Source: Escherichia coli
GTDB lineage: Bacteria; Pseudomonadota; Gammaproteobacteria; Enterobacterales; Enterobacteriaceae
Reading direction: 5' to 3' (one strand)
Length of the DNA stretch: 536 nt
Assembly: GCF_003334335.1 (NCBI RefSeq)
Contig: NZ_QOWQ01000172.1
Part shown: in pieces, positions 1 through 536 of the stretch
How positions within the stretch are numbered: position 1 is the stretch's first letter
Layout of the letters: every line of letters starts with the position of its first letter
Position numbers and translations under genes: made by a program
Notes under the pieces: generated by a model
Database searches by the model: none
What the model was told of the DNA's origin: nothing
The model's input: the letters and a program-made list of their open reading frames with translations, nothing else

Positions 1-530
1 TTTTTTGCCCAGCGATGGATGCTGCCGTCAATGTTTCCGGCATCCACATCACCAGGCCAGAGAGCGTAGGCCAGTTCGTCATCCAGTGTTTTCCATGTCT
101 GCTTGTATTCGCGATGAATGGCAGCAATGACCGGGCTGATTTTTCCTGTTGAATTTTCAGTGTACTGTTGATTGGCTCTGGCGCGGGCGAGATCAACAAC
201 AGACGTGTATTTTCCGGTTTCCTTGCGTTCACCTTCGCGACGTTTTTTCCAGATGCGCATCTCTGCCTGAATTTCGGGCCATTTAGCACCAGGAATACAT
301 TTATGCTTAACCCACCCAATGGCGTGCAACTTAAGCTCCGGATACATGGCGTTAACTTCTGGCATTTTCATCAACGCTTCAACGATATGTCCGTCGAATG
401 TTGCCATGTCTTCCTGCAACAATTCCTGTGCGCTAATAACCATATCAACGGTGATGTTTTCACATGTGTCGAACTTAACCATGACAGCGTTCTGTACTTC
501 AGGGGCCAGCTTGTCAAAAGTGACGTTCAT
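1..530 (-). CDS. Hypothetical protein, function unknown; partial CDS (start codon in window, 3' end beyond window position 1)
   Basis: Reverse-complement translation from the ATG at forward 530-528 gives 176 sense codons with no stop: MNVTFDKLAPEVQNAVMVKFDTCENITVDMVISAQELLQEDMATFDGHIVEALMKMPEVNAMYPELKLHAIGWVKHKCIPGAKWPEIQAEMRIWKKRREGERKETGKYTSVVDLARARANQQYTENSTGKISPVIAAIHREYKQTWKTLDDELAYALWPGDVDAGNIDGSIHRWAK, plus a partial codon. All three plus-strand frames hit stops within the first ~150 nt (e.g. TAG at 64-66, TGA in the other two frames). A 176-codon open frame is unlikely by chance, roughly (61/64)^176, well below 1 in 1000. Codon choice (ctg, gaa, aaa, gcc, atc frequent) fits an enterobacterial coding region. 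The ribosome-binding site would lie beyond position 536 and cannot be seen, so the start is provisional. Confidence 0.8.
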   Translation of the reverse strand, partial: MNVTFDKLAPEVQNAVMVKFDTCENITVDMVISAQELLQEDMATFDGHIVEALMKMPEVNAMYPELKLHAIGWVKHKCIPGAKWPEIQAEMRIWKKRREGERKETGKYTSVVDLARARANQQYTENSTGKISPVIAAIHREYKQTWKTLDDELAYALWPGDVDAGNIDGSIHRWAK

Positions 531-536
531 CGGATC

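Follow-up and report, generated by a model that had tools for sequence, protein, structure and literature searches.

The 536-nucleotide stretch of Escherichia coli DNA analyzed here, called the window throughout, is almost certainly the interior of a long prophage gene that starts 297 nt beyond position 536, with the first ATG of the open frame (530-528) serving as an internal codon, Met102. Public annotation already contains this gene with its boundaries and domains, which makes it an ordinary, known feature. Literature searches on ydfE, the exonuclease of Qin and prophage proteins of the Rv2179c-like type revealed no work on the function or the start of this gene. The relevance of the result extends little beyond correct annotation: in a partial ORF on a short contig, the first ATG should not be assigned as the start. 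A start at 530-528 would drop 101 residues and the whole N-terminal domain from a gene whose boundaries are annotated alike across thousands of E. coli genomes. The wider point is that a very common E. coli prophage protein is often mislabeled as RecE or exonuclease VIII.

Reading frame of the window and its place in the gene

Read on its minus strand, the window opens with gat ccg ATG aac gtc act ttt. As the preliminary description had noted, the ATG at 530-528 is preceded by six nucleotides (codons 536-531, Asp-Pro) that are in frame and free of stops, which we confirmed on the minus strand; with only these 6 nt inside the window, a Shine-Dalgarno sequence is not visible there. The frame is open at both window edges and spans 178 codons, 176 of which run from this ATG to position 3. 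With a chance of 61/64 per codon, two stop-free codons are expected with a probability of about 0.91, (61/64)^2, and a 178-codon open frame with a probability of about 2e-4. The open edge alone is uninformative, and the 178-codon frame represents true coding sequence. In the other frames of the window there are five closed ORFs, each encoding only 32-48 amino acids. The next in-frame ATG, at 482-480, is preceded by acgctgtc and corresponds to residue 17 when counted from the first Met.

The reverse-complemented window is an exact substring of the loci from E. coli ATCC 11775 (L001) and phage HannyBb (L002), in both of which it is enclosed by the same 823-codon CDS (Table 1). The offset between window and CDS, 4001 - 3704 = 297 nt or 99 codons, makes window bases 536-534 codon 100 and the ATG at 530-528 Met102. 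The gene thus extends 101 residues upstream of Met102 and 546 residues beyond the other window edge. The window was also aligned to positions 100-277 of the PHROG 2082 profile, which has 823 positions (E = 1.7e-135). The earlier view that the start cannot be fixed from the window, and that the protein may be longer with this Met internal, was borne out: the frame continues for 99 codons past position 536 in identical and near-identical records.

Table 1. Position of coding features and predicted protein segments in the window.
Feature	Position	Strand	Remarks
Partial CDS, codons 100-277 of 823	3..536	-	Exact match to L001:4001-4536 in CDS 3704-6175, in frame
First two bases of codon 278	bases 2-1	-	
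Codons 100-103 (Asp-Pro-Met-Asn), linker between N-terminal alpha/beta domain and helical YdfE_C	525..536	-	pLDDT dip to 81
ATG, Met102; internal, not the start	528..530	-	303 nt downstream of annotated ATG
ATG, Met118 (M17 of the preliminary description); internal codon	480..482	-	Leu/Ile in most relatives; anti-SD pairing -0.5 kcal/mol
Residues 104-205, all-helical domain, core of Pfam YdfE_C	219..524	-	AlphaFold2 pLDDT >92
Residues 206-245, basic and polar linker, probably disordered	99..218	-	pLDDT 44-67
A6 run on coding strand (T6 on + strand), codons 196-198 (KKR)	243..248	-	One-base frameshift in several database alleles

A megablast search found the window to be 100% identical in HannyBb, 97-99.8% identical in five other Escherichia phages, and matched in 4005 of 5426 complete E. 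coli genomes, with 2354 genome records at 99% identity or more. In the matching records, the annotation over the window was always "exonuclease", "3'-5' exonuclease" or "exonuclease VIII". The gene is located between dicB/ydfD and xis/int in lambdoid prophages and phages. Every isolate or phage record with identical sequence has the full architecture and the dicB-ydfD-exo-xis-int synteny, whereas the 536-nt contig itself is too short to show them; to judge from these sequences, the flanks of the source contig are presumably the same. We further observed that about 70% of the complete E. coli genomes carry the gene, often with 2-8 copies each, and that records frequently label it exonuclease VIII/RecE.

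Both window ends are open because the window is a whole short contig. In an exact-sequence look-up, its 178-residue translation proved identical to the product of two public metagenome contigs of exactly 536 nt each (ENA ERZ28621087 scaffold_96069 and ERZ27246728 k141_9381), for which a match to Pfam PF27432 (YdfE_C) is recorded. The window starts at CDS nt 298, and the last mismatch between L001 and L002 is at nt 285; it ends at nt 833, one base before L004, L005 and L006 first show a mismatch on the downstream side (nt 834). The proximity of both ends to allele-variable sites suggests that the contig may have been cut by an assembly-graph break between co-occurring prophage alleles. An Rfam scan of the window with E-values up to 1 gave no match, and a repeat search of the window found none.

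Translation start and the internal Met codons

The annotated start is the ATG at L001:3704, and the start region in this record reads ...ctgtaaTGAGGTAAAACAAAATGAGTAAAGTC. In the start context tgaGGTaaaacaaaATG, the motif GAGGT (L001:3691-3695) lies 8 nt upstream of the ATG and an in-frame TAA (L001:3695-3697) is found at -9, so that the ATG is the first start codon past this stop. The predicted pairing energy with the 3' end of 16S rRNA was -6.9 kcal/mol for M1, whereas Met80, Met102 and Met118 gave weaker values (-4.0, -3.0 and -0.5, respectively). The mean over the whole gene was -2.2, and only 5.7% of its positions reach -6. The check that the preliminary description had proposed, inspecting the sequence beyond position 536, thus led through an open frame to an ATG with GAGGT and an in-frame TAA, and revealed no stop or ribosome-binding site directly upstream of 530-528.

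The same start is annotated in 11 records. Five of these are annotated by PGAP (L001, L004, L006, L007 and L008, the latter a truncated copy), one is the curated RefSeq record of K-12 MG1655 (L003), where the gene is the IS2-cut pseudogene ydfE of prophage Qin, and five are independent phage submissions (HannyBb, Tritos, Evi, PhiR42_1 and Stx2a PPompW). At a coverage of at least 80%, the window alone was found in 3849 genomes and the window with 361 upstream bases in 3837; among 30 evenly sampled rows, 25 covered the window and upstream segment end to end. The annotated ATG is probably the start used in cells. Translation would begin there, served by the GAGGT Shine-Dalgarno sequence, and the ribosome would read through the ATG at 530-528 as an ordinary Met102 codon. 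The window would then encode residues 100-277, comprising the inter-domain linker, helical YdfE_C and the disordered stretch that follows.

A promoter scan of the gene strand over L001:3200-4600 gave no promoter-like site, and a terminator scan around the start and the window returned terminator-like matches at chance level. No ribosome profiling or N-terminal proteomics for the gene was found in the literature. In the K-12 copy (L003:3059-3081), the spacer from GAGGT to the ATG is shorter by one A, which removes the upstream in-frame TAA and leaves the frame open as far as an ATG five codons upstream. The extended frame reads ATG AGG TTA AAA CAA ATG; the annotated pseudogene start is unchanged.

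The substitution pattern upstream of the window indicates that codons 1-99 evolve as coding sequence. When L001 is compared with alleles that differ by 8-9% in this segment, third positions account for 20-21 of the 25-26 differences, and dN/dS is 0.05-0.06. Against L004 and L005, which are more divergent, dN/dS is 0.15-0.16 in codons 1-99 and 0.17 within the window; K-12 (L003) and NEBExpress (L008) were left out of the window calculation since an IS2 or deletion junction lies inside it.

Conservation also places the N-terminus at M1. In an alignment of 13 alleles, E. albertii among them, with identities down to 63%, M1-S2-K3 does not vary, nor do most of residues 1-44. A HMMER scan of residues 1-300 against 1.84 billion representative proteins gave 114 relatives, 50 of which were included in the N-terminus alignment (distant ones with 19-54% identity). 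Nearly all full-length relatives begin with M-x-x-(F/Y)-(I/V), in register with M1-S-K-V-F-I and with a few extra residues at most. For the remote PHROGs 2489 and 26058, the alignment starts at profile position 2-6, which corresponds to residue 3 of the protein.

At 530-528 there is no Shine-Dalgarno sequence, as the pairing energy of Met102 is near the background and far from that of the annotated start, and there is no boundary set by an upstream stop, as the frame is open for 101 codons back to the TAA at L001:3695-3697. Homologue N-termini align to M1 and not to Met102. In alleles of 70-74% identity, Met102 is replaced by Glu and Met118 by Leu; in the 50-relative alignment, the column of Met102 holds P, E, K, L and others in distant homologues, and that of Met118 mostly L or I. 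The 20 nt upstream of Met102 in identical records are tcgagactgaatccgatccg. Alleles differ at CDS nt 285, 288, 289 and 291, directly upstream of Met102 (nt 304-306), which argues that no conserved signal is embedded there. The assessment of M17 as a poor start also stands, given the sequence that precedes it and its pairing energy.

Domain architecture and relation to known nucleases

The AlphaFold2 model of residues 1-300 (m53905ab68d79, 51-row alignment) has a mean pLDDT of 87.5. Residues 3-94 are predicted to form an alpha/beta domain with a pLDDT of 92-96, and the score dips to 81 at residues 91-100. The helical domain in the window is followed by the low-confidence segment listed in Table 1, and three more helices are predicted for residues 247-297. 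Pfam names for the two parts are YdfE_N (PF27430) and YdfE_C (PF27432), taken from precomputed annotations with a newer Pfam release; an older Pfam copy without these entries reports only the C-terminal domain. The complete 823-residue protein would comprise YdfE_N, YdfE_C, a RecE-like middle segment and a C-terminal DEDDh (Rv2179c-like) 3'-5' exonuclease domain.

Residues 642-813 match the Rv2179c-like domain PF16473 (E = 3.4e-67), the family of DEDDh 3'-5' exo(ribo)nucleases, and the motifs DLET, NFDN and HNALDD are present in the translation, pointing to a putative DEDDh 3'-5' exonuclease. In a PDB sequence search, relatives were found only for this domain: 8kel ("exodeoxyribonuclease", E = 1.5e-6) and 8ken, with E-values around 1e-6. 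PADLOC gave only a weak generic DEDDh match.

Database fragments that lack approximately the first 87 residues keep only YdfE_C, and P0203 starts directly with this domain, query residues 100-212 being aligned to its residues 8-119. The distant relatives P0123, P0197, P0212 and P0220 carry another N-terminus.

RecE, the exodeoxyribonuclease VIII of the Rac prophage, is encoded at the equivalent place of a lambdoid early-left operon, likewise upstream of xis/int. Residues 262-627 of the present protein are 39% identical to K-12 RecE 278-592, with very high identity over residues 474-627, a stretch that includes a CxxC...CxxC motif. In contrast, the N-terminal 261 residues, which cover almost all of the window, are unrelated to RecE. 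The PD-(D/E)XK 5'-3' nuclease at the C-terminus of RecE appears to be replaced here by the predicted DEDDh 3'-5' exonuclease domain, and RecE residues 600-866 have no counterpart in the alignment. Downstream of the gene lie xis and int, with no recT. We considered filing the gene as RecE/exonuclease VIII and rejected this: the NCBIfam RecE equivalog NF007259 scores 278.1 bits against a cut-off of 1269, with only residues 246-623 aligned, the nuclease domain is different, and recT is lacking. The common label "exonuclease VIII" is thus unsupported. The gene takes the recE operon slot but carries a nuclease of predicted opposite polarity.

The closest known system is K-12 ydfE (b1577), a pseudogene of the Qin cryptic prophage. 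It is the same gene, with the same start codon and the same place after dicB-ydfD. The K-12 copy differs in being cut by IS2 within the window region (IS2E from L003:3844, approximately 468 nt into the window equivalent), whereas the window matches intact 823-codon alleles.

Alternative readings and variant alleles

Met102 lies at a true domain boundary and looks like the beginning of a protein, yet it is internal in the gene. That the ATG at 530-528 is the genuine and sole start, giving a protein that begins with YdfE_C, would agree with the location of this codon in the linker before a domain that folds independently in the AlphaFold2 model, and with the distant relatives P0203, P0160 and P0163, which also begin with YdfE_C. 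P0160 and P0163 may be contig-end fragments, however, and the 99 upstream codons are open and show coding-type evolution in all 11 inspected records. Since, in addition, Met102 lacks a Shine-Dalgarno sequence and is not conserved, we consider a sole start at this position extremely improbable. By analogy with the few natural relatives that begin with YdfE_C, such as P0203, a protein starting near residue 100 would be structurally viable.

The same domain boundary, the natural occurrence of YdfE_C without YdfE_N, and a pairing energy that is not zero could also accommodate a dual use, in which Met102 is a minor internal initiation site and a truncated isoform lacking YdfE_N is made beside the full-length protein. 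This is highly doubtful, because the pairing energy lies near the within-gene background, Met102 is lost in sister alleles, the 20 nt upstream of it carry abundant synonymous and non-synonymous variation, and no internal promoter was found. We give just as little weight to the idea that low-level initiation at Met102 produces an isoform without YdfE_N that acts as a built-in regulator of the full-length exonuclease. If an internal start were true, YdfE_N/YdfE_C might be a targeting module with a novel fold, which lambdoid prophages join to unrelated nuclease domains. Finally, the contig might stem from a copy that has decayed through IS interruption, deletion or frameshift, like those of K-12 ydfE, BL21-type strains and PPompW, and that has no functional start or full-length product. 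Pseudogene versions are indeed frequent, as illustrated by the IS2 insertion in K-12 ydfE, the NEBExpress truncation, the 4-bp deletion in PPompW and frameshifted database proteins. Such an origin is nevertheless very unlikely: the 178-codon frame of the window is intact, thousands of genomes carry intact alleles identical to it (with the 2354 records at 99% identity or more mentioned above), and the contig breaks fit allele polymorphisms rather than an IS junction. An interior segment of the long prophage gene, with Met102 read through, is the reading that we retain.

Alleles of the gene are mosaic. Across the window, identity to L001 is 100% for phage HannyBb and 99% for strain AR_0374; in codons 1-99 it is only 91-92%. 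This drop implies that a recombination event had its breakpoint at about CDS nt 285-298, not far from where YdfE_N and YdfE_C meet.

Several database proteins carry frameshifts in A-runs at two sites that fall within the window. The tails of P0038, P0069, P0073 and P0082 read WKNVAKVNARKP, which corresponds to the window sequence minus one A in the A6 run. The tails of P0068 and of P0055, which represents a cluster of 84 members, read GNTRLLLIS or NTRLLLIS, with a one-base deletion at approximately position 215-225 (ggaaaatac). The frameshifts in these A-runs are either recurrent pseudogenization or homopolymer sequencing errors.

Other copies have lost larger parts of the gene or its frame. 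P0026 (392 residues; L009:3001-4179 and L010:2332-3510) is internally deleted, so that YdfE_N/YdfE_C are fused directly to the Rv2179c-like domain. Its gene adjoins rspA-type genes and lacks xis/int, and from this gene context the locus appears to be a decayed, Qin-like prophage remnant. In the Stx2a-converting phage PPompW (L005:2204-4671), a 4-bp deletion causes a frameshift in the gene, and NEBExpress, of the B lineage, retains a 166-codon stub (L008:2566-3063).
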